12,588 nucleotides of DNA from a virus. Its lineage: Duplodnaviria; Heunggongvirae; Uroviricota; Caudoviricetes. Each line of letters starts with the position of its first letter. The stretch's first letter is position 1. Both the position numbers and the translations under genes were made by a program. The stretch spans positions 1 through 12,588 of IMG/VR virus record IMGVR_UViG_2713896773_000018, one strand, 5' to 3'. Under the pieces are notes generated by a model. That model worked only from the letters and a program-made list of their open reading frames with translations. It was not told where the DNA came from and searched no databases. Below, piece after piece: positions 598-12,588 of this stretch.

Positions 598-935
598 GCT
601 CTCACCCCGTATACGCTTAAAATTCTTCTCATCGCCGCGCTGTTGCGGCACTCCTGGCAGATCACGTTTGCCTCTGTACGCTGCACCAGCTTCGAATTTC
701 CCTTCGGCATAGCCGGGATTGTTTCTGGTGCGTATTTCATGCCGTAATCGGTCAGCCGATAAAGCCGCTGGCCGTATTTTCCTTCGCAGCGGATCAGGCC
801 GTCTGCCAGCAGCGTGCTCACCGTTCCGGATATCTTTTTGGTGTCCATGCCGATAAGCCCTGCCAGTTTGGCGTTGTTCAACCCTGGGTTGTTGCGCAGG
901 GCGGCCAGCACCTGCTCACGGATTGTTATGTTCAT
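594..935 (-). CDS. ren: Ren-like protein (113 aa)
   Basis: Start at the internal ATG 933-935, one nucleotide after the P stop; the ORF-track N-terminal extension overlaps P and is rejected. C-terminus ...CQECRNSAAMRRILSVYGVRA resembles the C-terminus of lambda Ren as I recall it (...KECRQSAAMKRVLAVYGVKR). Position immediately downstream of P matches lambda. Confidence 0.65.
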   Translation of the reverse strand: MNITIREQVLAALRNNPGLNNAKLAGLIGMDTKKISGTVSTLLADGLIRCEGKYGQRLYRLTDYGMKYAPETIPAMPKGNSKLVQRTEANVICQECRNSAAMRRILSVYGVRA

Positions 936-936
936 G

Positions 937-1626
937 TCACACCATCCCGTTCGACTTGTTGCGGTTGTACTTGGCCAGCAGCAGCTGGATCGGCGTCGGC
1001 CCTTGCTCGGCAGCTGGTGCGGCAATAGCCCGGCGTACCGGCGGCACTGGCTTACCCTCGGTGACGCGCCTTTCCCACATGTCCAGCAGATCGCCTGCCT
1101 CGCGTGCCAGTTCACCATGCGTTAACTGGCGCTCGGTGCTGCGGTGGCGCAATTCTACGCAAATGTGGTACATGACCGGCTGCGACCATGGAAATTGCTC
1201 GCTGGAGATGAATTCGAACGAACGATTACGCCATTCCCAGTACTCGGCGATCACCTGGTCAACGTTGACGCCCAGCGCGCCGCCGCTCTGCTTGCACCAG
1301 GCGACGAACTGGCCCGGCGACGGCAGGAATGGGCGCTCCTGGCGGCGGGCAATGCGCATGCCGGCATCGACCTGAGCCATGGTGTGGATCCCGTTCTCCT
1401 GAAACGCCAGCAGCCACTGACGGCGGAATTCGTTCAGGTCTTCCTGGGTGCGGAAGTTCGCCATGCTGGCCGGGAACGCGGCGCGCAGCTCGTTGAACAG
1501 CTTGTTGAATACCTGCGCCACCTGCTCGACCGGCGCGCACTCCTGGTACTGCTCTGGCAGGTTATGGGCCATGCGGCTCATCTGCTCGCGGTCGTGGTTA
1601 CGCATCTGCTCTGCAAGAGATTTCAT
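937..1626 (-). CDS. P: replication protein P-like (DnaB helicase loader), 229 aa
   Basis: Collinear similarity to lambda P from memory along the whole length (e.g. MKSLAEQMRNHDREQMSRMAHNLPEQY... and RRQERPFLPSPGQFVAWC). Start ATG 1624-1626 overlaps the O stop (ATGA) and is preceded by GGGGTGA. Confidence 0.9.
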   Translation of the reverse strand: MKSLAEQMRNHDREQMSRMAHNLPEQYQECAPVEQVAQVFNKLFNELRAAFPASMANFRTQEDLNEFRRQWLLAFQENGIHTMAQVDAGMRIARRQERPFLPSPGQFVAWCKQSGGALGVNVDQVIAEYWEWRNRSFEFISSEQFPWSQPVMYHICVELRHRSTERQLTHGELAREAGDLLDMWERRVTEGKPVPPVRRAIAAPAAEQGPTPIQLLLAKYNRNKSNGMV

Positions 1627-2531
1627 CGGATCACCCCATAGGCCCAGTCAGTGTTGTTGAAGTCCAGATCTGGCTTGACAGCGCGCTGCTCACCTCCGGC
1701 GTTACGCTGCATTGTCAGCTTGTCCCACTGCTTACGCAGGCTTTCGGGACTCAGGATGTTGGTCTGCCAGAAGTGGTGTTTGCTAGCCCAGTCATACAGC
1801 GCGCAGATGTCCTGGTGCGACCGGTTGTCTATCTGGCGCATCAGGCGAACAGTGTTAGACCAGGAGGTCATGTCCGGGGCTTTGCAGGTTGGGTTAATCA
1901 GCTTCACCCTGGAGGAAATCCACTTAGCTGTCTCGAGGTCTTCAGCAGAGCCCCACTTCGCACCGGATGGTGTGTAGACCGCAGCTTCAGGATGAGTTGA
2001 TAAAAATTTCTTCAGACGTGCGTCAGAGGATTCGTCAGAATTCTCGGACGAAGATCTTTTAATACTGTTCTTGTTCTTGTATTGGGTGTCTACCGTTTTC
2101 GGGAAGGTTATTCCTGATTTCGGGAAGGATTTTCCCGTTTTCGGGAATTTTCTTCCCGTTTCCGGTTTGTCTAAAATCCATGCTGAAAGGTCAGTGTTTA
2201 CACCGACGATTTTCATCATGCCCTGCTTCTGTGAAAAGATGATTTTGCGTTCTGCGAGAGACTTAAGCGCGTCCGATACATGCGTATCGCTCAGGCCCGT
2301 AAGCTCGGCAATAACCGTATTTGTCACGCGGTCCTGTTTCTTGTTCCAGCCGTAGGTAAGCCAGATCACCGCCTCAAAACATTGCCATTCCCGGCCTGAC
2401 AGTCTCAGGCGAGGCTTAAGCTGTTGGATCTCGTTAGCGACCTTGGTATACCCGTTCGACAGGTCGGCCATACGACCTCCCGGTTGTTCGGTTTTATTTG
2501 GGAAATTGATTATTTCAGCGGTGTTTGACAT
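1623..2531 (-). CDS. O: replication initiator O-like protein, 302 aa
   Basis: N-terminal region (MSNTAEIINFPNK...LTYGWNK...) resembles lambda O. Start ATG 2529-2531 with GGGAGTAAGT RBS; the upstream in-frame extension from the ORF track is rejected. A central repeated peptide FPKTGKSFPKSGITFPKT is encoded by the DNA iterons. Confidence 0.85.
   Translation of the reverse strand: MSNTAEIINFPNKTEQPGGRMADLSNGYTKVANEIQQLKPRLRLSGREWQCFEAVIWLTYGWNKKQDRVTNTVIAELTGLSDTHVSDALKSLAERKIIFSQKQGMMKIVGVNTDLSAWILDKPETGRKFPKTGKSFPKSGITFPKTVDTQYKNKNSIKRSSSENSDESSDARLKKFLSTHPEAAVYTPSGAKWGSAEDLETAKWISSRVKLINPTCKAPDMTSWSNTVRLMRQIDNRSHQDICALYDWASKHHFWQTNILSPESLRKQWDKLTMQRNAGGEQRAVKPDLDFNNTDWAYGVIR
2045..2160. other. 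phage origin of replication (ori-lambda-like): three 21-bp-spaced iterons with internal dyad symmetry plus an adjacent AT-rich stretch, inside the O gene
   Basis: TCGGGAA(GG) recurs at 2099, 2120 and 2141, exactly 21 bp apart, each followed by an inverted TTCC(C/T)G arm (CGGGAAGGATTTTCCCG, CGGGAATTTTCTTCCCG). The flanking 2045-2090 segment is AT-rich (cttttaatactgttcttgttcttgtatt). Lambda ori has the same layout within O. Confidence 0.7.
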
Positions 2532-2616
2532 ACTTACTCCCGTTACTTGCCGTAACACAGTGTGATAAGGGCCTTTGAAGTTACCGCTTCAAGGGCTTTT
2601 TCTTTTCTTGTGCCTC

Positions 2617-3159
2617 TCATATAACCCCCAGCATCGATGTAACCATCGTCATCAGCGGTCCTACCTGCTCCGGCATGAGGCGAAACAATGACGCTATGCC
2701 CTCGCTTACCTCCTTCATTTTCTGGTGCTCAGGCGCGTTCAGGAGAACGGCTTGCTTTGCTTCTGAACATTCCTTCATGGCAGATGCGATCAGCGACATG
2801 GTGTCGTTCTGCGGCGCCAGGCGTGTACGAAACTCAACAGGAAGAACAGCCATGATTGCCGGGGTCAGTTCTCTAACGTTCTCGCGGTACTGATCGGAGT
2901 CGAAGCGGTTATCCAGAAAGCGAAAAAGTTTCTGGCGCGCCCTGCTGATGTCTTCTGGGAAGCTGATGGCGGTACCGCCCTGCTCCCGGTATTCGTTGAT
3001 GATCAGCGCTGACACTACGTCCTGATTGTCCAGGGACGACGACCATGCACGGACCGCATCGCGGATTTTGTCGTGACCTGGCTCCGCCTTAGGTTGAGCG
3101 CGGTTTATCATCGCTCCCGGGTGTATTCCGGTATTGTGTTGATACGCAAGTGAATGCAT
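2617..3159 (-). CDS. CII-position regulatory protein, YdaT / CP76-type (180 aa)
   Basis: ATG at 3157-3159 with AAGGGA RBS. Lies between cro and O where lambda has cII, but is twice the size of CII. Segments IINEYREQGG... and RELTPAIMAVLPVEFRTRL resemble Rac prophage YdaT as I recall it. Family assignment is from memory and unverified. Confidence 0.5.
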   Translation of the reverse strand: MHSLAYQHNTGIHPGAMINRAQPKAEPGHDKIRDAVRAWSSSLDNQDVVSALIINEYREQGGTAISFPEDISRARQKLFRFLDNRFDSDQYRENVRELTPAIMAVLPVEFRTRLAPQNDTMSLIASAMKECSEAKQAVLLNAPEHQKMKEVSEGIASLFRLMPEQVGPLMTMVTSMLGVI

Positions 3160-3189
3160 TGCTTTCCCTTTCGTGGTTAGAGCCGCCGG

Positions 3190-3411
3190 TTAGGCGGCAA
3201 AGATACCTGGATATAGAACTTCGCGAGGAAGTCCGGTTACTTCTTCGTATTTACGCATTTTTGTTACTGGAAGGCTGCCACCTCGCTTTTTAAGCATATT
3301 GATGGCCTGAGGCGTTACGCCGACCTTTTCAGCAAGCACCTTTTGAGAGCCGCCCACTGCATTAATGGCTTTCTCAAGCGGGGTGCTGGCGTTGGATTTT
3401 TTGTTGATCAT
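3190..3411 (-). CDS. cro: Cro-like HTH regulator (73 aa)
   Basis: First gene divergent from the repressor. HTH segment QKVLAEKVGVTPQAINMLKKRGG. ATG at 3409-3411 with a GGAG RBS. Confidence 0.8.
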   Translation of the reverse strand: MINKKSNASTPLEKAINAVGGSQKVLAEKVGVTPQAINMLKKRGGSLPVTKMRKYEEVTGLPREVLYPGIFAA

Positions 3412-3432
3412 GTTTTGCTCCGCTCATGTGTA

Positions 3433-3506
3433 ATCAACACCATGTTAATTCATGGCGTGGATTAAATCAACATTATGGTGATGGAAAAAATCCACATGTT
3501 GTTTAC
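3433..3506. promoter_or_regulatory. OR-like operator cluster: three 17-bp sites of form ATC[AC]ACA-N3-TGnTnAn between cro and cI
   Basis: Site A 3433-3449 ATCAACA CCA TGTTAAT; site B 3466-3482 ATCAACA TTA TGGTGAT; site C 3490-3506 ATCCACA TGT TGTTTAC. The same half-site recurs in the OL region at 5458-5541. Confidence 0.65.
3442..3470 (-). promoter_or_regulatory. candidate PR promoter for cro (minus strand): -35 TTGATT (3465-3470), -10 TAACAT (3442-3447), 17-bp spacer
   Basis: Hexamers read on the minus strand; they overlap operator sites A and B as PR overlaps OR1/OR2 in lambda. The -10 is a weak match, so the exact hexamers are uncertain. Confidence 0.4.
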
Positions 3507-3528
3507 CATGCATGGAGCGGAGGGTTTT

Positions 3529-4248
3529 ATGAGCAGCATTTCTGAAAGAATTAAATTTTTACTGGCAAGGGAAGGCTTGAAGCAGCGGGATTTGGCTGAG
3601 GCTTTGTCGACTAGCCCACAGACCGTTAACAACTGGATAAAAAGAGACGCGTTAAGTCGTGAGGCGGCGCAACAAATATCTGAAAAATTCGGTTATTCTC
3701 TTGACTGGTTATTAAATGGAGAGGGTTCTCCAAAGAAGGATCTGGAGAGCAACATCCCGCCAGAGTCTGAGTGGGGAACTGTCGACGCTTGGGACAAAAA
3801 TACCCCCCTACCTGACGATGAGGTGGAAGTACCGTTTCTGAAGGATATCGAGTTTGCGTGTGGTGATGGACGAGTACACGATGAGGATCACAACGGTTTT
3901 AAATTGCGCTTTTCAAAAGCAACGCTCCGTCGAGTTGGAGCTAACACAGATGGGTCTGGCATCCTGTGTTTCCCTGCTACTGGCGACAGCATGGAACCTG
4001 TGATACCGGATGGTACGACTGTAGCCGTCGATACGAACAACAAACGCATAGTTGATGGGAAACTGTATGCCATTGGTCAGACAGATGGCGGGAATGGTCA
4101 ACTCAAGCGCATTAAACAGCTGTATCGTAAGCCAGGTGGGAAGCTGATCATCCGCAGTTACAACAACGACTCCTACCCAGACGAAGAGGCTGATATTGAT
4201 GATGTCGAGATAATTGGCCGTCTCTTCTGGTACTCGGTATTGCTGTAG
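3529..4248 (+). CDS. cI: CI-like prophage repressor (XRE-type HTH + S24 LexA-like autopeptidase), 239 aa
   Basis: N-terminal HTH (RDLAEALSTSPQTVNNWIKRD). C-terminal S24 signatures GDSMEP (catalytic Ser) and GQLKRIKQL (Lys). The ATG at 3529 has a GGAGCGGAGGG RBS; the upstream ATGs at 3475/3481 lie inside operator site B and lack an RBS. Confidence 0.9.
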   Translation: MSSISERIKFLLAREGLKQRDLAEALSTSPQTVNNWIKRDALSREAAQQISEKFGYSLDWLLNGEGSPKKDLESNIPPESEWGTVDAWDKNTPLPDDEVEVPFLKDIEFACGDGRVHDEDHNGFKLRFSKATLRRVGANTDGSGILCFPATGDSMEPVIPDGTTVAVDTNNKRIVDGKLYAIGQTDGGNGQLKRIKQLYRKPGGKLIIRSYNNDSYPDEEADIDDVEIIGRLFWYSVLL

Positions 4249-4294
4249 CGGTGGCCTGATGAGACGTTTTGGTGAAAGCATATAAGGACTGTTG

Positions 4295-5161
4295 ATGGAA
4301 AACACTGGCTTACACGATGTTAATTTTTCACTTAGATATGACGGTTTGGATGCTGAAAAGCATGAGATTGAACTTTCTTCGCTCGGTGAATCGCTAAAGG
4401 GATTTTCGAAGATATTAGCTACAGCTGGAACCTTCGCATTAACCCAAAAGTACTCGCGAAGCACCTCAACTCAAGAGGTTAAAATTTACGCTACCGAAGC
4501 TAGGGCCAATTGTTTTTCTCTTGATACTATCATGAATTTTATCAGTCAGTCTCAATTGTTCTCAGGGTCTGCGGGGGCTATACTTGGCGCATTAGTGCCT
4601 TATATCTTCGCTAAAAACTCGCAGAAGAAAGAGGAAATGAAATACCTAAAAGAAGCACTTGAGAAGGCAATTGAGGCCCTCGGAAATAAAGATAAAGATA
4701 CCATCTCAGGTCTAATCTCAGTGATTGACAAGATGGCTAGTGAGTTACGCCCATCAGTTAGACAGGCAGTTTCCCCCATCGGTACCACCTGTAATAAGAT
4801 AAGCGTCACACCGGGGAATGGTTTCAAGCCTGCTGTAATTGATGAGCAAGATAAAGCAGTAATAGACCAGTTGGACGACGACGAAGTTCTTGGCTTAAGG
4901 GAGTATCGAATCTTCCTTACTGAATTCGACGCTCACCGAATGACCGCTAAAGTCATTATAGAAGGTGATGATTCAGATAAGCGCATCTCAGCACAAATAA
5001 GCGATCCATCTGCTTCAAAGGCAGACAACCCGTATCTCATTTCACTTAGTCGTTTTCTGTCAACGGGTCTAAGTCATGAGTCAGCGGTAAAAGTAACTGC
5101 CAAAGCAGCAGTTAGAAAAGGGGCTATTAGTAAACTTTTCATAGTTGATATTGAGCTTTAA
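4295..5161 (+). CDS. hypothetical protein (288 aa) in the rex/immunity-moron position; one short hydrophobic stretch, no recognised domain
   Basis: ATG at 4295 with AAGGA RBS (the ORF track starts at a TTG at 4292). Immediately downstream of and co-oriented with cI, followed by a terminator. AT-rich: about 38% GC in a hand-counted 130-nt sample. Hydrophobic stretch [17 protein letters not shown], then a K/E-rich helical segment. Confidence 0.8.
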
Positions 5162-5164
5162 CAA

Positions 5165-5187
5165 CCGGCCACCGCGCCGGGTTTTTT
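5165..5187 (+). terminator. rho-independent terminator ending the cI operon
   Basis: CCGGC-CACCG-GCCGG stem-loop followed by TTTTTT, directly after the stop at 5159-5161. Confidence 0.7.
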
Positions 5188-5191
5188 GTGC

Positions 5192-5401
5192 CTACTTCAC
5201 AGCTTTACTACCCTTCCTGACTATCTCAGCTGCATCCCTGTTCACACCCTTACCTATCACGTTTCCCGTTTCCTTCCGGTACCGTTCCAGCTTGTCGATG
5301 ATGTTTTGCTGGGTCATAGGTAAATCTGCCAGTGACAACTCCATGACCGCCCGCCCCATGGCGTGAACCATCATGTTCACTCTTTCTTCATCCAAGTCCA
5401 T
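5192..5401 (-). CDS. hypothetical small protein (69 aa), convergent with the cI operon
   Basis: Strong RBS AAAGGAGTGGGTA before the ATG at 5399-5401. Its upstream region is the AT-rich operator-bearing segment 5402-5500. No family recognised. Confidence 0.6.
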   Translation of the reverse strand: MDLDEERVNMMVHAMGRAVMELSLADLPMTQQNIIDKLERYRKETGNVIGKGVNRDAAEIVRKGSKAVK

Positions 5402-5457
5402 TACCCACTCCTTTTTGATGTTTTTTTCAGCATATCACTTATGCCACCAAAAAATAA

Positions 5458-5542
5458 ATCAACATAAAAATCAACAGTAAACGATTAAATCAACAAAATA
5501 AATCCACAAGGTGTTGACCTACAAATCCACATGATGTTTAAT
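5458..5542 (+). promoter_or_regulatory. OL/PL-like region: operator half-site array plus candidate PL (-35 TTGACC 5514-5519, -10 TTTAAT 5537-5542, 17-bp spacer)
   Basis: ATCAACA at 5458, 5470 and 5489; full sites ATCCACA AGG TGTTGAC (5502-5518) and ATCCACA TGA TGTTTAA (5525-5541). The promoter hexamers sit inside these two sites, as in lambda OL1/OL2. Confidence 0.6.
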
Positions 5543-5588
5543 TACTCCATCGAAACGAAACATCGACAGCTGAGCGAAGTTAGCCAGC

Positions 5589-5619
5589 GGCGGACAGCAA
5601 GTCGCCTGCTTTTTAACAA
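5589..5619 (+). promoter_or_regulatory. candidate nutL-like antitermination site: hairpin (5589-5606) followed by boxA-like TGCTTTTTAACAA (5607-5619)
   Basis: TGCTTTTTAACAA differs at one position from the E. coli rrn boxA core TGCTCTTTAACAA as I recall it. It lies about 40-70 nt downstream of the predicted PL start, preceded by a GGCGG/UCGCC stem. Confidence 0.4.
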
Positions 5620-5843
5620 CATGCAAAGTCGGAACAGCACTCAGTAATCCTGTTTAGACCCCAACGTACAAATTCGGCGCAGCACCGGGCGCGATCCGGT
5701 CGGTGTGAGGCTACCCCCTCGCGAGAGCGATAAAGGCGTGGGAACGGGCAACACTGGCTGGATGAGAGGTGCGAAGCGCAAACAGATTTATTCCAGTCCA
5801 TTCGAAGTTGAGTGGGCTGGGCTGAATCACAAGAGGATTTTTT

Positions 5844-6056
5844 ATGACTCAGACATACATTCCGGCGTGTTTAAGAGACCTTCCTAAGAAGCGTCAGAAG
5901 CCACGCAAACAGGCGATTAAAGAAGCGCAAGTGGAAGTTCTGAATAAGGCAATCGCATCGATAAAAGACGATATGCGTGCGTTCAAAACAGAAGAGCAGC
6001 GTCGCGGTCATTACCAGGCGATCAGCACACTCTCACAGATTCGTGATGAGTTGTAG
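5844..6056 (+). CDS. small basic protein (70 aa), first gene of the PL operon (N position); function unassigned
   Basis: Strong RBS AAGAGGA with a 6-nt spacer. Basic N-terminal segment LPKKRQKPRKQAIK. No clear arginine-rich motif of the lambda N type, so an antiterminator role is positional inference only. Confidence 0.6.
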   Translation: MTQTYIPACLRDLPKKRQKPRKQAIKEAQVEVLNKAIASIKDDMRAFKTEEQRRGHYQAISTLSQIRDEL

Positions 6057-6079
6057 AAGCTGATAGATAAAGCATTTCT

Positions 6080-6097
6080 CCCGCATCAGCGGGTAAC
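6080..6097 (+). repeat. copy 1 of a 17-bp direct repeat CCGCATCAGCGGGTAAC (hairpin CCCGC-ATCA-GCGGG)
   Basis: Identical 17-mer at 6081-6097 and 6303-6319, each just upstream of a gene's RBS. Confidence 0.8.
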
Positions 6098-6113
6098 TAA
6101 GTGGAGAGTACGT

Positions 6114-6302
6114 ATGCACAAGTGTCAATTCTGTGGGTACTTTCTGGCATCTGAAGAGATGCAGAGAATATCTGTAAACATGGTTGGCAGGCCTTACAAC
6201 ATCTGCATTCCATGCTCAGAAAAGTACAAAAAGAAAGGCCTGTGGGATTCGGCAAAAAACGATATCGACTGGAAATCACTTCCATGCGTCGATGAGACAT
6301 AA
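6114..6302 (+). CDS. small zinc-ribbon-like protein (62 aa; CxxC...CxxC)
   Basis: RBS GGAGAG with a 5-nt spacer. Cys pairs CQFC and CIPC about 24 residues apart. AT-rich. Flanked by the 17-bp direct repeats. Confidence 0.6.
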   Translation: MHKCQFCGYFLASEEMQRISVNMVGRPYNICIPCSEKYKKKGLWDSAKNDIDWKSLPCVDET

Positions 6303-6319
6303 CCGCATCAGCGGGTAAC
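6303..6319 (+). repeat. copy 2 of the 17-bp direct repeat CCGCATCAGCGGGTAAC
   Basis: Exact match to 6081-6097; begins one nucleotide after the stop of the 6114-6302 gene. Confidence 0.8.
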
Positions 6320-6335
6320 GACAGAGGGTAAGTCA

Positions 6336-7004
6336 ATGATTCGTCTTAACAACGAAATTAAAAATCAGCTATGCCATAACCTGCTTCTCGCATCCCCATT
6401 GTTTGAGAAAGCGAAAGCTGCGGTTAATGAGAGGGCGAAAATTGTTGAAGAAATTCGACAGGCATTGCTCAAGCAGGAAAACACTAGCGATGAGCAAATA
6501 ACTAAGGCTCGGGAAGATTTCAAAGATAACTCCTTCATCAAGATGCAGGTCGGCGCTAAAACTGCAACTTTAAAGGTCATTATTAATGGTGAGTATCACG
6601 AATTAGCCAGGAACGGTTTGGATCATCGCTATCGCCACCGTGGAAAACATATTGGTAAGCACGATCTTGAAAGCGACCTGTTCTTCGGAGCTTCCTTCGC
6701 GCCTGTAATTGATTCGGGTTTCGTTCCTGAAAGTTACAGCACGCTGAAGAAAGTTGGAAAATTACACGACCGACTCACTGAATCGACGGTAACCATCAAC
6801 GTTCTTTACGATGAAGTTGATGCCTTCCAATTGCAGGTTAAAGGTGCTCTAACCAAAGTCTCAACTGTTAAAAAACTGGCTGAGATGTGGCCTGAGGCAG
6901 TGCCATATTTGCCTGAGGTGGAACGCCGTGAAGCGACCAGCACCGCACTTGCCATTCCCGTTGAAACGCTAAACGCCCTTTGCGGCATACCAAAGAATGA
7001 ATGA
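6336..7004 (+). CDS. hypothetical protein (222 aa), AT-rich accessory gene in the ral/sieB-equivalent position
   Basis: RBS GAGGG. A long ORF with no internal stops in AT-rich DNA, followed by a strong terminator. No family recognised. Confidence 0.8.
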   Translation: MIRLNNEIKNQLCHNLLLASPLFEKAKAAVNERAKIVEEIRQALLKQENTSDEQITKAREDFKDNSFIKMQVGAKTATLKVIINGEYHELARNGLDHRYRHRGKHIGKHDLESDLFFGASFAPVIDSGFVPESYSTLKKVGKLHDRLTESTVTINVLYDEVDAFQLQVKGALTKVSTVKKLAEMWPEAVPYLPEVERREATSTALAIPVETLNALCGIPKNE

Positions 7005-7026
7005 CCCGCTCCGGCGGGTTTTTTAT
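7005..7026 (+). terminator. rho-independent terminator
   Basis: CCCGC-TCCG-GCGGG stem-loop followed by TTTTTTAT, immediately after the TGA at 7002-7004. Confidence 0.8.
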
Positions 7027-7165
7027 CGGCCATACATAGGCAGATTTTCGAGTCTGCCCATTTATGACAACCGGCGGCCATCCACCGCCCATTGAAACAC
7101 TGAATAAATGCGTTGAAGTCTTGTATTAACCGTTCGGCGGCGCGGCCTTAAGCGCGGAGATGATT

Positions 7166-7675
7166 ATGACTCTTATCGAATTGACCAAAAAGAAAATGGC
7201 AATTGAAGCCGAACTGGCTCAGTTGAAGGCGAAGTTTGTTGATGACACCTCACGCATCGGTAAAGAGCTGATTGCCGTGTCTGAAGGTATCAACCAGGCC
7301 AATAAAGGCCTAACGGTTGAGATGGTTAGGCATGGCATGACGATCATTAACTTCGGTGACCCGAAACAAAGCATGGAGCGGCGCGGGTGTGTTGAAGACG
7401 CGATTAACGACATTGCGTCGGGGTTCAACCGTCTGAGCGAGCGTTATTTTGGCACAAAAAACTACGCCCACTGGAGCGATCAGCGTGAAGACCATCGCTA
7501 TGGATATGGCCCTAAACACGGCTCTATCTGCTTCAAGATCGGTTTAACTGGCACCGCACTTAATAAGCTGGCAAGCGGCGGGTTGAGTGATTACGACGCT
7601 GAATGCGCTATCTACTGCCTGATGAACATTGACGCCATCAATGCGGCAAACGACAAAGCCCGGGAGGCATCATGA
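7166..7675 (+). CDS. hypothetical phage protein (169 aa)
   Basis: GGAG at 7156-7159 favours the ATG at 7166 over the one at 7160. The stop overlaps the next ORF's start (ATGA). Confidence 0.7.
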   Translation: MTLIELTKKKMAIEAELAQLKAKFVDDTSRIGKELIAVSEGINQANKGLTVEMVRHGMTIINFGDPKQSMERRGCVEDAINDIASGFNRLSERYFGTKNYAHWSDQREDHRYGYGPKHGSICFKIGLTGTALNKLASGGLSDYDAECAIYCLMNIDAINAANDKAREAS

Positions 7676-7830
7676 CAGTCACCCATAACGGAAAGAAGTA
7701 CACCGCCAAAAAGCTCAACGATAACGAGTGGCAGCTGACGTCCGTATCGGCACCGCGTGAAAAGCTGACGCTTAACCGCTGGCATATGAAGCTGGCTGGC
7801 CTCCTGGAACAGGTTGAGGTGAAGGTATGA
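7672..7830 (+). CDS. small hypothetical protein (52 aa; MTVTHNGKKYTAKKLNDNEWQLTSVSAPREKLTLNRWHMKLAGLLEQVEVKV), not in the supplied ORF track
   Basis: Strong RBS GGGAGG 5 nt upstream of the ATG at 7672. ATGA overlaps with both the upstream and downstream genes suggest translational coupling. Confidence 0.55.
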   Translation: MTVTHNGKKYTAKKLNDNEWQLTSVSAPREKLTLNRWHMKLAGLLEQVEVKV

Positions 7831-8333
7831 TGCGAAAGCACAAGTTGCCAAGTGCTGAGGAGATAGATTCCTTGCTGGATTACAACCCTGAAACCGGAGT
7901 ATTTACGTGGAAAGTGACGAAATCAGGATGGGTTGTAAAGGGGCGGCCTGCTGGTTCAAAAAACAATAATGGCTATCTCCGAGTTGGTATTGGAAGAAGG
8001 CACTACTTCCTTTCTCGAATCGCATTTTTCTTATGCACCGGGGAATCACCTGAAGAAGTAGACCATATCAATGGTGACAGAACAGATAACAGGGCGTGCA
8101 ACTTAAGAGCCGCAAGCCGTCATGAAAACTGCCTCAATAAGTCGGTAAGAAGCGACAGCAGGACTGGTGTAAAGGGCGTCTCATGGCGACCGGATGTTAA
8201 AAAATGGTCTGCACGATCAACTGATTCATCGGGGAAGAGAGTGTTTTTAGGTTACTACCGCACCATCAGAGATGCGGTGGCTGTCCTTAATGATTTTCGG
8301 AGAGAACAGCATGGTGAGTTTGCAAAAAATTAG
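7827..8333 (+). CDS. HNH homing endonuclease with C-terminal AP2-type DNA-binding domain (168 aa)
   Basis: HNH motif EEVDHINGDRTDNRACNLRAASRHENCLN. AP2-like segment GVKGVSWRPDVKKWSARST...KRVFLGYY. RBS GAGGTGAAGG. Confidence 0.85.
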   Translation: MMRKHKLPSAEEIDSLLDYNPETGVFTWKVTKSGWVVKGRPAGSKNNNGYLRVGIGRRHYFLSRIAFFLCTGESPEEVDHINGDRTDNRACNLRAASRHENCLNKSVRSDSRTGVKGVSWRPDVKKWSARSTDSSGKRVFLGYYRTIRDAVAVLNDFRREQHGEFAKN

Positions 8334-8544
8334 CAGCAACTTGCACTACGGCACCACCCCGCTCATTCGCCAGTGCGTCACGCCAGGCATGATGGCATTG
8401 CATGAAGGCCGCACCTATCGCGTCTCAGCAGTCATTCAGGAGCGCAAATGGGTGTACCTGCACACCGATGCAGAAATTATCCGCCTCAGTGACTGCGTGA
8501 TTGACGTCCTTCTGGACGGTCACGGAAACCCTATCCAGCACTAA
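8311..8544 (+). CDS. hypothetical protein (77 aa), start overlapping the 3' end of the HNH gene by 23 nt
   Basis: RBS GGAGAG with a 6-nt spacer before the ATG at 8311; the ORF-track start at 8272 has no RBS. Confidence 0.5.
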   Translation: MVSLQKISSNLHYGTTPLIRQCVTPGMMALHEGRTYRVSAVIQERKWVYLHTDAEIIRLSDCVIDVLLDGHGNPIQH

Positions 8545-8613
8545 CCACCCTATTCATCCGATCGGCCTGGCTTCTGCGGGCGGGATCTGCACATCCAAAT
8601 TTCAGGAGAAACC

Positions 8614-9582
8614 ATGAGCGAAGTAACGGACTTAACTGTCATCGAAATCAAGCCGGAACAGGCCCCAGTGCTTTACGTAGCGGGCGGCCTTGACGCGTAC
8701 CTTGAGCAAATCCGCCAGGCTGTAAACGAAGTGCCGGACCTGTCCACGAAGAAAGGCCGTGACCGTGTCGCCTCTCTGGCGGCGCAGGTATCCCGCAGCA
8801 AGACAGCAATCGAAAAGCCGGGCCGTGAATACCTTAAGCGCCTGAAAGAGGCTGTGCGTCCGGCTGAGGCCGAAATTAAGCGTTTCGTTGATGCTTGCGA
8901 CGAGCTACGTGATGCCACCCGCCGCCCACTCACCGAATGGGAAGCCGAGCAGGAGCGCATCAAGGCTGAAGAAGCCATGAATGCGCTGCACGCCGAAGCG
9001 CTGGAGATGAACGAAGAGTTTGACCGCCAGCGCGCCGCTCAAATCGAAGCGGACCACGAAATGGCTCTGCTGATGAATGAGAAGTTTGACCGTGACCGCG
9101 AAGAGCAGCGCCGCCTGGCAGAACAGGCTCAGCGCGAACGTGACGAACGACTGAAGCAGGACGCGGCAGAACAAGCCCGCCGCGATGCCGAAGCGATGCA
9201 CAAAGCAGAGATTGAAGCCGCAGCGCGCCGTGAAGCTGAAGAGAAAGCACGTGCAGAGCTGGCTGAACGCCAGCGCGTCGAAGCGGAACAGCGTGCAGCT
9301 CGCGAGAAGCAGGAAGCAATCGCAGAAGAAAAACGCAAAGCGCAGGAAGAAGCAGATCGCATCAAGCGCGAAGCTGAAGCGAAAGAGAAAGCCCGTCTGG
9401 CCGAAGAGCAGCGCAAAGTTGAAGAAGAAGCGCGCCGCGCCGCAGACAAAGAGCACCGCCGCACCGTCAACCGTCGCGTCATCGCCGACCTTATAGCTCA
9501 GGGCATCCCCGAAGAATTCGCGCAGAAAGCACTGCTGGCGATCGCTGGCGGCAAAGTGCAGGACGCGCACATCAAATATTGA
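8614..9582 (+). CDS. hypothetical protein (322 aa) with a long Ala/Glu/Arg/Lys-rich low-complexity central region
   Basis: RBS AGGAG. Globular-looking N-terminus of about 100 aa, then about 180 aa of ERKA-rich repeats (e.g. AEEKRKAQEEADRIKREAEAKEKARLAEEQRKVEEEARRA), then a short C-terminal tail. Located immediately upstream of gam. Confidence 0.75.
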   Translation: MSEVTDLTVIEIKPEQAPVLYVAGGLDAYLEQIRQAVNEVPDLSTKKGRDRVASLAAQVSRSKTAIEKPGREYLKRLKEAVRPAEAEIKRFVDACDELRDATRRPLTEWEAEQERIKAEEAMNALHAEALEMNEEFDRQRAAQIEADHEMALLMNEKFDRDREEQRRLAEQAQRERDERLKQDAAEQARRDAEAMHKAEIEAAARREAEEKARAELAERQRVEAEQRAAREKQEAIAEEKRKAQEEADRIKREAEAKEKARLAEEQRKVEEEARRAADKEHRRTVNRRVIADLIAQGIPEEFAQKALLAIAGGKVQDAHIKY

Positions 9583-9589
9583 GGCAACC

Positions 9590-9871
9590 ATGAACGCATA
9601 CCTCACTTACGACCGAATCGAAGATCGGCGCTGGGTTGAGCAGCAGCTCACCGACGAGAAGGAGAAGTGGATCGACAACCGGGCGAAAGAACTGATCGCC
9701 ATGTTCCCGAAATATGCTCTGCAAATGAGTAGCCTGTTTCTCCCAAAAGAAGCGCAAATGGCACTAGTCGGTGAAAAGGCAGAGGAAGCCTATAACGACT
9801 ATGTCACACGCATCTGTTACGACCGCGCCGAAGAAGAGTGGGATCGCCTTCATCCAACCTGCCCATTTTAA
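9590..9871 (+). CDS. gam: Gam-like host-nuclease (RecBCD) inhibitor, 93 aa
   Basis: N-terminus MNAYLTYDRIEDRRW... resembles the short form of lambda Gam (MNAYYIQDRLEAQSW...) from memory. Position directly upstream of the annealing-protein and exo genes. RBS GAGG. Confidence 0.55.
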   Translation: MNAYLTYDRIEDRRWVEQQLTDEKEKWIDNRAKELIAMFPKYALQMSSLFLPKEAQMALVGEKAEEAYNDYVTRICYDRAEEEWDRLHPTCPF

Positions 9872-9880
9872 GGAGGGGCT

Positions 9881-10798
9881 ATGAGCTTAACCCTTGTTGA
9901 TTTCGTCAAACAACAGGAGCCGCTTTTCATTAAGGCGGCCACAGACGAGCGGATGGTGTGGGCGAAGGAAAGCCAGTTCGCCATCCAGCTATTTCAGAAC
10001 AATGACTACCTCGCGAAAGTCGCATTCCAGAACCAGACCAGCACGCAGAACGCAATAATCAACGTTGCGGCTATCGGTATTTCGCTAAACCCAGCTCAGA
10101 AGCTGGCTTACCTGGTTCCGCGTAAAGGGGCAGTTTGCCTCGACATCAGTTACATGGGCCTGATGCACATTGCGCAGCAGTCTGGCGCCATTAAATGGTG
10201 TCAGTCGGCAATTGTTCGCAGAAACGACCAGTTCCGCCGCGAAGGGCTCGATAAGCCGCCGGTCCATATCTACAACGACTTCGATACCGAAGAGCAGCGC
10301 GGGGACATCGTAGGGGCATATGTAACGGTAAAAACTGACGATGGTGATTACCTCACCCATACGATGCGCATCGATGCCATTTACTCCATCCGTGACCGGT
10401 CTGAAGCATGGAAGAAGTACAAATCTGACAACAGTAAAAAGTGTCCATGGGTCACTGACGAAGAACAGATGATCCTCAAAACAGTCGTGAAGCAGGCAGC
10501 AAAATACTGGCCTCGCCGTGAGCGCCTGGACGCCGCCATAGACCACGTTAACACCGAGGGCGAAGAAGGTATCAACTTTACAGCAGAGCGTCAGCCTGAG
10601 CGCGATATAACGCCGCTTAGCGAAACCACGCAGAAAGAGATAAACGACCTGCTTGTCTCTTTGGATAAGACATGGGATGACGATCTTCTCCCTCTCTGCT
10701 CACGCATTTTCAAACGCCCTATCACGCAGCCAGCAGACCTGACAGAGCTTGAAGGTGTTAAAGCTCTCGGGTTCCTCAGACAAAAGGCGGCAGCATGA
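9881..10798 (+). CDS. single-strand annealing protein: RecT-like core with a Red-beta (Bet)-like C-terminal tail, 305 aa
   Basis: Perfect RBS AGGAGG. The C-terminal ~70 aa ([13 protein letters not shown]...[16 protein letters not shown]...[12 protein letters not shown]) closely match the lambda Bet C-terminus as I recall it. The N-terminal ~230 aa look RecT-like rather than Bet-like. Stop overlaps the exo start (ATGA). Confidence 0.8.
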
Positions 10799-11475
10799 CA
10801 CCAGAAATTATCCTGGCCCGGACCGGCATTGACGTAACCACTATCCAGCAGGGCGACGAGGCGTGGCACCGGCTGCGCCTCGGCGTTATCACCGCATCTG
10901 AAGTTCACAACGTCATTTCCAAGCCCAGATCTGGGAAGAAGTGGACAGACATGAAAATTTCCTACTTCCACACCCTACTCGCCGAGGTATGCACCGGCGT
11001 AGCGCCAGAGGTTAACGCCAAGGCGCTGGCCTGGGGGAAGCAGTATGAAGAAGACGCCCGCACCCTCTTCGAGTTCACCACCGACGTGAAAGTCACGGAG
11101 TCTCCGATCTTGTTCCGTGACGAGAGCATGCGCACCGCGTGCTCACCTGACGGCCTTTGCAGTAACGGATTCGGCCTCGAATTGAAATGCCCGTTCACCT
11201 CCCGCGACTTCATGAAATTCCGCCTTGGCGGTTTCGAAGCCATCAAGTCTGCCTACATGGCCCAGGTGCAGTTCAGCATGTGGGTGACCGGGAAAGACGC
11301 CTGGTTCTTTGCCAACTACGACCCGCGCATGAAGCGCGAAGGTATTCACCACGTCGTCGTTGAGCGGGATCCACAGTACATGACCAATTTCAACGAAATG
11401 GTGCCGGAGTTCATCGAGAAGATGGACGAGGCGCTGGCGGAGATCGGCTTCAGGTTCGGGGAGCAGTGGAAATGA
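10795..11475 (+). CDS. exo: lambda-type 5'-3' exonuclease (Red-alpha / YqaJ family), 226 aa
   Basis: Near-collinear, high-identity match to lambda Exo from memory ([14 protein letters not shown]...[24 protein letters not shown]...[31 protein letters not shown]...[10 protein letters not shown]). Confidence 0.93.
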
Positions 11476-11518
11476 AACGCACACCATTTTACCGCAGGCC
11501 CGGGCGAACCGGGCAATC

Positions 11519-12097
11519 ATGAAACGCCTGGACGATGTTTGCGGCAAAGCAGGATGGCGCAATGAATACCGCGATATTCCCAACAACGGCGGAGTTGAAT
11601 GCGGCATATCAATCAAGATTGATTCCGAATGGGTAACCAAATGGGATGCTGCTGAAAACACGCAGGTAGAAGCCGTCAAAGGTGGTCGTTCAGGTGCAAT
11701 GAAGCGTGCTGCCGTTCAGTGGGGAATAGGTCGGTATCTGTATAACCTTGAGGAAGGTTTCGCACAAACATCTCTCGATAAAAAGCAGGGATGGCACAGG
11801 GCAAAACTCAAGGGTGGAACAGGATTTTACTGGCTCCCTCCATCGCTGCCGGGATGGGCAATCCCAGCATCAGATAACAAACCATCACCAGAAAATACCA
11901 ACCATAAATCTCCATCGGTTGACTGCGAGCAAATCCTGAAAGACTTCAGCGATTATGCGTCAACAGAAACTGATAAGAAAAAACTCATCGAGCGTTATCA
12001 GCGTGACTGGCAATTAATGGCTGGCAACGAGGAGGCGCAGGCTAAATGCGTTCAGGTAATGAACATCAGAGTTAACGAACTAAAACAGGCGGCATAA
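11519..12097 (+). CDS. Erf/Rad52-superfamily-like protein, apparently N-terminally shortened (192 aa)
   Basis: C-terminal ~55 aa (EQILKDFSDYASTETDKKKLIERYQRDWQLMAGNEEAQAKCVQVMNIRVNELKQAA) closely match the P22 Erf C-terminus as I recall it. Rad52-like motif AMKRAAVQWGIGRYLY at residues ~60-75 leaves too little upstream sequence for a complete annealing domain. Weak RBS. Confidence 0.55.
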   Translation: MKRLDDVCGKAGWRNEYRDIPNNGGVECGISIKIDSEWVTKWDAAENTQVEAVKGGRSGAMKRAAVQWGIGRYLYNLEEGFAQTSLDKKQGWHRAKLKGGTGFYWLPPSLPGWAIPASDNKPSPENTNHKSPSVDCEQILKDFSDYASTETDKKKLIERYQRDWQLMAGNEEAQAKCVQVMNIRVNELKQAA

Positions 12098-12319
12098 ATG
12101 GCAAGCAGAGGCGTAAATAAGGTGATCATTATTGGTCGCCTTGGGCATGATCCAGAAATCAGAGATTCATTCAACAAGGTTGCAAAGCGCGTTCCGGCAT
12201 TCAAAGGAATCCTCAACGAATGGGATTCACTCGTTGCTCTGTTGAAGTCTGAAATGAAGATACACGGAAACAAAGCACCAGAGACTTACAGAAGAATCAG
12301 CGAGCTACGCAAGGACTAA
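12098..12319 (+). CDS. 73-aa ORF whose first 22 codons are an ssb 5' remnant (MASRGVNKVIIIGRLGHDPEIR) fused to unrelated sequence
   Basis: The first ~66 nt resemble the start of E. coli ssb at protein and DNA level, from memory. After codon 22 no frame continues SSB-like sequence, so this is a recombination junction rather than a frameshift. Whether the product is functional is unknown. Confidence 0.45.
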   Translation: MASRGVNKVIIIGRLGHDPEIRDSFNKVAKRVPAFKGILNEWDSLVALLKSEMKIHGNKAPETYRRISELRKD

Positions 12320-12320
12320 C

Positions 12321-12381
12321 GCCTCACACTCGATGAGGCCTGTACATATCTGATAGAGCCGCTATATGGCGGTTTATTTTT
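12321..12381 (+). terminator. two hairpins after the ssb-remnant ORF; the second (12358-12381) is terminator-like with a T-tract
   Basis: Perfect 6-bp inverted repeat GCCTCA-N7-TGAGGC at 12321-12339. Then CCGC-TATATG-GCGG followed by TTTATTTTT. Confidence 0.45.
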
Positions 12382-12396
12382 GCCTGGAGAATTAAG

Positions 12397-12588
12397 ATGA
12401 CCGATACCAGCCTGATTCCTGAGAAAGAAGTGATGAACAAGCTCGGTGTTTCATCACGTCAGACAATCTGGAACTATACCAAACGGCACGGATTTCCGAA
12501 GCCAGTCAGAACCCACCCCAAATCATACCTTCGTGAAGCTGTTGAAGGGTGGATTCTTAACGGTGGCGTTAATCAGAAATGCTCCTGA
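12397..12588 (+). CDS. xis: excisionase / AlpA-family small HTH protein (63 aa)
   Basis: RBS GGAGAA. Motif EKEVMNKLGVSSRQTIWNYTKRHGFPKPV is typical of the AlpA/Xis family. Sits at the distal end of the early-left operon where xis-int lie in lambdoid phages. The stop is at the last three bases of the window. Confidence 0.75.
   Translation: MTDTSLIPEKEVMNKLGVSSRQTIWNYTKRHGFPKPVRTHPKSYLREAVEGWILNGGVNQKCS

Follow-up and report, generated by a model that had tools for sequence, protein, structure and literature searches.

The 192-codon gene downstream of exo in the window (the whole 12,588-nt stretch of viral DNA that was analysed) is, judged from sequence comparison, the 3' four-fifths of a Rad52-type annealing gene and an ordinary scar of phage mosaic evolution. 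We think it very likely that the gene sits on a mosaic junction made by a crossover at 13 bp and that the remnant probably does not work as an annealing protein. The window would derive from an E. coli lambdoid prophage in which phi80-type gamL, recT and exo, together with 15 codons of orf142, were joined to an Sf6/HK75-type segment. That segment would run from codon 39 of the Rad52-like gene onward, followed by ssb, an anti-RecBCD gene, an excisionase-like gene and the integrase. The partners may have been two phages, one phi80-type and one Sf6/HK75-type, or two tandem prophages, and a crossover within the shared 13 bp would make the event a microhomology-mediated recombination, either illegitimate or dependent on very short homology. 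A later microhomology deletion, also at 13 bp and reaching from ssb through a 114-codon gene, would then have occurred in the window's own lineage. The features on which this reading is built are as follows.

9590..9871, + strand: gamL-type host nuclease inhibitor gene, the first of its module; the collinear loci encode a 93-aa product with a Pfam GamL match.
9881..10798, + strand: full-length phi80-type RecT, 305 aa, the same length as in the DH5alpha phi80 remnant, with Pfam RecT at aa 31-213.
10795..11475, + strand: exo ORF, 226 aa, whose stop TGA at 11473-11475 overlaps the ATG at 11472.
11472..11522, + strand: 16-codon ORF, the 5' remnant of a phi80-type orf142, from its translation and DNA collinearity.
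11505-11517, unstranded: left crossover, at the 13-bp microhomology CGAACCGGGCAAT, from a five-sequence DNA alignment and from BLAST matches that end at 11517 and start at 11505.
11519..12097, + strand: 192-aa annealing-gene remnant, residues 44-235 of a 235-aa protein of the Sf6 gp28 type.
11915-12094 (about aa 133-192 of the remnant), + strand: P22-Erf-type C-terminal domain, from alignment with the Erf C terminus.
12098..12319, + strand: 73-aa in-frame fusion of ssb codons 1-22 to codons 64-114 of a 114-aa gene, from a three-way DNA comparison and translations.
12151-12163, unstranded: right crossover, at the 13-bp microhomology TCCAGAAATCAGA, from BLAST against loci L006, L007 and L008 and a base-level view.
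12397..12588, + strand: 63-aa AlpA/Xis-like helix-turn-helix gene, from weak Pfam Phage_AlpA/HTH_17 matches.

Two ATGA-type stop/start overlaps follow one another at the boundary between exo and the annealing gene. The first joins the exo stop to the ATG at 11472, and the second places the TGA of the 16-codon ORF (11520-11522) over the ATG of the 192-codon ORF. Both had been described in a first-pass annotation of this DNA; the first is plain in the sequence, and translation of 11472..11522 confirms an upstream ORF of 16 codons ending on the second ATG. The mechanical ORF list begins the 192-aa ORF at 11519, indicating that no earlier ATG, GTG or TTG lies in its frame.

The DNA on the two sides of this boundary is collinear with different parents. 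Positions 895..11517 follow the phi80 remnant of laboratory K-12 strains, and up to 11517 the left flank is 89.6% identical to the DH5alpha remnant and 93-95% identical to a prophage of E. coli M37H (collinear from gamL to exo). In both M37H and DH5alpha, a 142-codon gene with a weak HTH_11 match comes after exo and overlaps it in the same ATGA, and the first 15 codons of the 16-codon ORF are the start of this intact orf142 (the M37H 142-aa gene). The 16-codon ORF does belong to the scar of an exchange, as had been proposed, but it is the 5' end of phi80-type orf142 and not a piece of the annealing gene. A parent with exactly this recT-exo allele and an intact orf142 was not found, the best match being 94.7% identical. 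From 11505 onward the right flank is collinear with the rad52-like and ssb genes of Sf6/HK75-type phages, and the match to the annealing gene begins 115 nt inside a gene that is annotated as 708 nt (235 aa) in Sf6, HK75, E. coli SY3626 and ECONIH4.

A five-way alignment places the switch precisely: the window tracks the phi80-type sequence as far as ...CCCGGG and follows Sf6-type sequence from CATGAAACGCC on. Beyond the 13 bp of identity at the crossover the parents are unrelated, and a crossover within 13 bp common to otherwise unrelated genes points to microhomology-mediated recombination. CGAACCGGGCAAT is unique in the window, where about 0.03 chance matches are expected for each 13-mer even with one mismatch allowed. 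In orf142 it falls on codons 12-16, whereas the Rad52-like gene reads it in a different frame, as codons 39-43 (TNRAI), so the genes were joined out of frame; the orf142 remnant consequently stops after 16 codons, at the TGA overlapping the Met44 codon. Since TCATGA already exists in the intact gene, this frame relationship is an accident of the crossover. The suggestion that a deletion or module exchange had removed the 5' part of the gene is thus borne out by relatives that are intact at 235 aa, by 43 missing codons and by flanks of different parentage.

The phi80-type gamL-recT-exo module of the window is intact. RefSeq names the first gene of the module "host nuclease inhibitor GamL" in both M37H and DH5alpha. 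The last 76 aa of RecT are 67% identical to lambda Bet 180-255 and form a lambda-Bet-type C-terminal domain; the neighbour had been called a RecT/Bet hybrid, and it indeed combines a RecT-family annealing domain with that C-terminal domain. The exonuclease is of the lambda type, with a Pfam YqaJ match and 85% identity to lambda Exo over all 226 aa. The window resembles the phi80-type module gamL-recT-exo-orf142-DUF1317-methylase of DH5alpha and M37H in gene order, gene lengths and the ATGA coupling of exo to orf142. It differs in that only 15 codons of orf142 remain and Sf6-type DNA takes the place of all that follows.

The 192-aa protein corresponds, with 97-99% identity, to residues 44-235 of Sf6 gp28 and HK75 gp32, which have 235 aa. 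In tblastn searches it was 98-99% identical to proteins of HK75, mEp235, mEpX2, Sf6 and IME10, and 91-94% identical to proteins of many P22-like Salmonella phages. Its match to Pfam Rad52_Rad22 (PF04098) scores 64 bits, the cut-off being 20.3 (E 1.9e-17). This match covers only profile positions 38-153 of 153, through residues 1-93 (11519-11797), whereas residues 4-136 of intact Sf6 gp28 cover positions 7-153; the annealing domain of the window protein is therefore incomplete. Neither protein matches the Erf profile PF04404 in a Pfam search in which P22 Erf itself, as a control, scores 157 bits. The C terminus nevertheless aligns with that of P22 Erf (BLASTP E 5e-31), and a count by hand from the alignment gives about 73% identity between the last 56 residues and Erf 150-205. 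An Erf-like C terminus, noted at first reading, thus holds for the last 56-60 or so residues. The gene had also been assigned to the Erf family, which is right for this C-terminal part of about 56 aa but not for the annealing domain, which is of the Rad52/Sak type (PF04098 and not PF04404).

This architecture is that of Sf6 gene 28, HK75 gp32 and epsilon34 gp36, which likewise have a Rad52_Rad22 core and a P22-Erf-type C-terminal domain. As in the Sf6/HK75 family, ssb lies downstream and its ATG immediately follows the stop of the annealing gene. Unlike members of that family, the window has neither residues 1-43 nor the native upstream genes, kil and an HK97 gp42-like gene, and the annealing gene instead follows a lambda-type exo. 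RefSeq names for the 235-aa family are "Erf-like ssDNA annealing protein" or "Rad52/Rad22 family DNA repair protein". The exchange of N-terminal domains around a shared Erf-type C-terminal domain has already been published for the intact family, with epsilon34 gp36 (PMC2629481).

A 26-sequence alignment of the family shows the size of the missing segment. The 192-aa protein starts at an invariant internal methionine, Met44, and lacks the conserved 43 N-terminal residues (MDLNKFDEPF..DIEWRIQQ.GK...WA.VLAYVTNRAI), in line with the first impression that there was too little N-terminal sequence for a full annealing domain. The Rad52-type motif recognized at that stage is present, and the conserved KR pair in AMKRAAVQWGIG is kept. 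K105 and R106 of the intact protein (K62 and R63 of the window protein, in "AMKRAAVQWG") are invariant in the alignment, so that the conserved basic residues of the Rad52 ssDNA groove are retained. Following Lopes et al. (PMC2896510), we take the KR pair of the AMKRAAVQWGIG helix to correspond to the K152 region (K152/R153) of human Rad52.

An AlphaFold model of an intact 235-aa representative (pLDDT 80) predicts a helix at residues 3-7, a beta-hairpin at 15-24/30-38, a helix at 40-51, a three-stranded sheet at 56-62, 69-77 and 80-85, a helix at 100-110 and a C-terminal three-helix domain at 179-234. PDB sequence searches with the intact protein and the family profile returned chance matches only, so a fold comparison was needed to recover the relationship to Rad52 and Mgm101. 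Foldseek matched the model best to yeast Mgm101 and to human RAD52, with E values from 3e-4 to 1e-2 and probabilities of 0.92-1.0. The predicted succession of beta-hairpin, helix, three-stranded sheet and helix in the intact relative is like the Rad52/Mgm101/Sak fold; the window protein departs from this fold in beginning inside helix alpha1, with no hairpin. Taken together, the alignment and the model of the intact relative indicate that the 192-aa protein lacks the N-terminal helix, the whole beta1-beta2 hairpin and the first turn of helix alpha1, and hence does not contain a complete N-terminal annealing domain. In the model, the parts kept in the remnant are the three-stranded sheet, the KR-containing helix and the Erf-type C-terminal domain. 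With the hairpin and the start of helix alpha1 gone, Rad52-type ring assembly or DNA annealing appears unlikely.

Alignment of the family with human RAD52 by hhalign gave a weak match (E 0.35), no more than a lead to equivalent residues, in which Tyr37 lies opposite Tyr65 and Met44 opposite Ile72. R55 and Y65 are residues of the inner DNA site of human RAD52; if this weak match is correct, their counterparts would lie in the deleted part. The remnant is most likely a defective annealing protein, and annealing would fall to the intact RecT/Exo/GamL module.

The Sf6-type side of the window carries a second junction. The ssb match ends at 12169 and the match to the 114-codon gene starts at 12141, the two BLAST matches overlapping over 12141-12169, and within this overlap lies TCCAGAAATCAGA, which is unique in the window. 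In the resulting 73-aa fusion the Pfam SSB match is confined to profile positions 1-21. BLAST coordinates give a deletion of 3,959 bp, which removed most of ssb, the anti-RecBCD gene (abc2), a DUF2737 gene and others. The undeleted parent state exists and is 99.3-99.9% identical. In most carriers of the left junction ssb is complete (171 aa), and behind it come the anti-RecBCD gene, DUF2737 and other genes and then the 114-codon gene, the 63-codon AlpA/Xis-like gene and an integrase adjoining sbcB, while the right junction was seen in the window and in locus L012. This comparison clearly marks the right junction as a deletion that took place within the hybrid. The 63-aa AlpA/Xis-like protein is identical in L007, and related loci have an integrase and then ExoI downstream; this gene belongs to the Sf6-type side of the mosaic. 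A 13-bp microhomology crossover thus lies on either side of the remnant, whose cognate ssb is lost too.

The exact 192-aa protein occurs on at least 14 contigs, from E. coli isolates and metagenome assemblies, and carries the NCBI label "recombinase" (EFN8034272.1, HDC2733788.1). A 28-nt string spanning the left junction was present in every contig that was retrieved (10 of the 14). From the start of exo to the stop of the remnant, a span of 1,303 nt, these retrieved carriers differ from the window at 0-2 nt, and all of them show 99.7-99.9% identity in the block that extends from gamL to the remnant (9577-12169). The upstream immunity regions and the downstream genes vary among them; flanking modules that vary around a constant block indicate that the junction block has been carried into several phage backgrounds. 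The junction is reproduced across independent assemblies and hence real in nature; with 14 independent contigs, an assembly chimera is unlikely.

The junction is also rare. The 28-nt string had no match in GTDB representative genomes, IMG/VR or JGI metagenome contigs, and BLAST found no record spanning the junction among 5,426 complete E. coli genomes and 50,697 phage records; the carriers came to light solely through the exact-protein look-up. Because they were chosen by exact protein identity and their DNA is near-clonal, these carriers give no power to test selection. In the literature consulted, which was not searched specifically for the junction, we found no description of it. Compared with all four intact relatives examined, the window gene has three private changes, two non-synonymous and one synonymous. 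One of the amino-acid changes, D142G, alters a position at which all other sequences of the 26-sequence alignment have D or E; the other is Q172H. These changes, D142G included, may hint at decay or relaxed constraint, the counts being too small for a test.

The arrangement of the reading frames raises the question of expression. Ribosomes ending exo may restart at 11472, in the way expected for intact orf142, and again, after 16 codons, at 11519, which would yield some truncated protein at a low level. A scan of 9500-12588 gave no promoter-like site, and on the + strand it gave a single terminator-like site, at 12356. We consider it unlikely that such a truncated protein has a retained or new function independent of the hairpin, whether binding SSB or a host factor through its Erf-type C-terminal domain, poisoning the rings of superinfecting Sf6/HK75-type phages or modulating RecT/Exo. 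In favor of such a function, the ORF stays open in 14 contigs with differing immunity and downstream modules, and it stands in the early-left operon behind two consecutive ATGA overlaps after exo, ahead of any terminator-like site. Further, the C-terminal three-helix domain (H179-234) and the family-invariant residues from Met44 onward are kept, with the exception of D142G. However, an open frame is expected even without selection, because the block is near-identical among carriers, and the overlap that would permit reinitiation comes from a TCATGA already present in the intact gene. No Shine-Dalgarno-like sequence lies ahead of 11519. The substitution at a conserved acidic residue among the window-specific changes, the later loss of the cognate ssb in the window's lineage and the absence of the junction from the E. 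coli genomes, phage records, GTDB, IMG/VR and JGI contigs searched also speak against a selected function.

A narrower version of this idea, which we regard as improbable, is that the hairpin-less fragment, made by reinitiation, acts as a dominant-negative subunit or a partner-binding decoy. Its targets could be competing Sf6/HK75-type annealing proteins, or it could titrate SSB or a host recombinase sensor. If this were true, the scar would have been domesticated as an anti-recombination or anti-defence factor, which would account for the presence of the junction block in several backgrounds; the idea has no positive support beyond the open frame in near-clonal copies. A defective remnant beside an intact annealing module remains our preferred reading.

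The lengths of homologues bear on whether the ORF might instead be complete. The 90%-identity cluster of the protein has 1,495 members, of which 11 of the 15 listed (40 read) are 235 aa long, and more distant homologues have 232-241 aa. Homologues of the window protein's own length are thus not widespread, the modal length being 232-241 aa. Three of the more distant homologues, P0040, P0097 and P0126 (195-197 aa), are called from the same methionine, and a widespread short isoform was rejected after they were inspected. It is very improbable that the 192-aa ORF is a naturally short, complete annealing protein such as an isoform started at Met44: that methionine is invariant in the family and the three short homologues begin there, but these are a separate truncation with another breakpoint (L016), a run of N in a scaffold (L017) and a frameshift of one base (L018), both the Pfam domain and the predicted fold begin about 40 residues upstream, and the window DNA upstream is unrelated to the annealing gene.

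The start of the annealing remnant had also been noted to repeat that of the upstream ORF. Indeed, both begin with ATGAAACGC, which is present exactly twice in the whole window, at 11472 and 11519, 47 bp apart; shuffled sequences gave a mean of 0.17 matches, with at least two matches in 3 of 200 shuffles. Phi80-type orf142 begins with ATGAAACGC, and the intact Sf6-type gene has it at codons 44-46 (Met44-Lys-Arg). The shared start is therefore real, but its reading as a duplication left by rearrangement fails, since each parent contributes its own copy; for the same reason, ATGAAACGC was discarded as a product of duplication or slippage. On this comparison the repeat is a coincidence of two parental sequences and no product of rearrangement. 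The 9-mer and the 13-mer stand in opposite order in the two parents and so do not form one longer homology. That the junction or the repeat is an assembly artefact, a local tandem duplication or slippage is scarcely credible: the 9-mer does occur twice, 47 bp apart, a count above that of the shuffles, but the same 28-nt junction is found in all the retrieved contigs from various samples and assemblers, each copy sits at the matching place in one parent, and the sequence between the copies is unrepeated.

The mosaic reading that we favor places the window among known lambdoid rearrangements. The gene family, its Rad52 fold, the swap of Erf-type C-terminal domains and lambdoid mosaicism are already established (PMC2896510, PMC2629481, PMC3945230). 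Like other lambdoid mosaic junctions, those in the window join unrelated modules abruptly at a short shared sequence and keep the gene order of the early-left operon. Unlike the usual junctions, both crossovers lie inside genes and not between them; the left one, which is moreover out of frame, thus left two gene fragments. Minimal efficient pairing is quoted as requiring 31-34 bp for RecA and 23-27 bp for Red-beta (PMC3945230). Because 13 bp falls below both, the events would be best described as microhomology-mediated illegitimate recombination.

For annotation, these results mean that the database "recombinase" is a truncated remnant and that the adjoining 73-aa "hypothetical protein" is a remnant of ssb in a fusion. 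For the lambdoid phages, they provide a module exchange resolved to the base, in which both crossovers fell within genes and each used 13 bp of chance identity. One of these crossovers is caught together with its undeleted parent state, which bears on the question of short homology versus random joining in phage mosaicism, a debate set out in PMC3945230. Finally, a junction can survive although it destroys a gene, provided that the function lost is redundant, and here RecT/Exo/GamL would cover the loss.

A 3,959-bp deletion at a 13-bp microhomology, TCCAGAAATCAGA, produced a short open reading frame in which the start of ssb is fused to the end of another gene:

12098-12319, 73-aa "hypothetical protein" (WP_072185832.1) consisting of codons 1 to 22 of ssb and codons 64 to 114 of a separate 114-codon gene, joined in frame.

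The crossover lies within the microhomology itself, at positions 12151 to 12163. The state before the 3,959-bp deletion is seen in three related contigs (L006, L007, and L008).

Other variants of the Rad52-like gene were also found. At L016:2356-2565, the locus of a more distant homologue, a Rad52-like gene of 70% identity has been truncated independently, with its breakpoint elsewhere, at approximately codon 27. This truncated gene adjoins a Peptidase_G2 gene in the opposite orientation, and the start assigned to it by the gene caller is again Met44. The 211-aa P0022 from E. coli differs from the intact protein by 24 residues deleted in frame; in the family alignment, the missing stretch belongs to the low-confidence linker that joins the annealing domain to the C-terminal, Erf-type one. 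The closest intact relative of the Rad52-like remnant is that of E. coli ECONIH4 (L019), with 99.3% identity over the retained part.

At the ECONIH4 locus, an HNH endonuclease gene (L019:3594-4061) is inserted with the Rad52-like gene on one side and ssb on the other. Within the window, positions 7832 to 8343 comprise 512 bp that are extra relative to L007 and L009, two contigs that are elsewhere 99.4 to 100% identical to the window. This segment is probably a homing-endonuclease insertion and carries the following:

7827-8333, open reading frame with an HNH_3 endonuclease domain.

Two further genes were noted in the window:

4292-5161, gene immediately after that of the cI-like repressor (3475-4248), encoding 289 aa with the domains DUF7946 and DUF7947.
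6336-7004, early-left operon gene for a 222-aa protein that contains the nucleotide modification associated domain 5 (Nmad5).

In lambdoid prophages, the site just downstream of the cI-like repressor is often home to accessory or exclusion genes expressed in the lysogen.

The RecT protein encoded at 9881 to 10798 is a natural domain chimera. Its N-terminal domain belongs to the RecT family (Pfam, residues 31 to 213), whereas its last 76 residues are 67% identical to residues 180 to 255 of lambda Bet. The exonuclease encoded by the adjoining gene shows 85% identity to lambda Exo. The RecT of the phi80 remnant in DH5alpha is likewise 305 aa long, and the chimeric RecT/Bet build is the normal phi80-type form.
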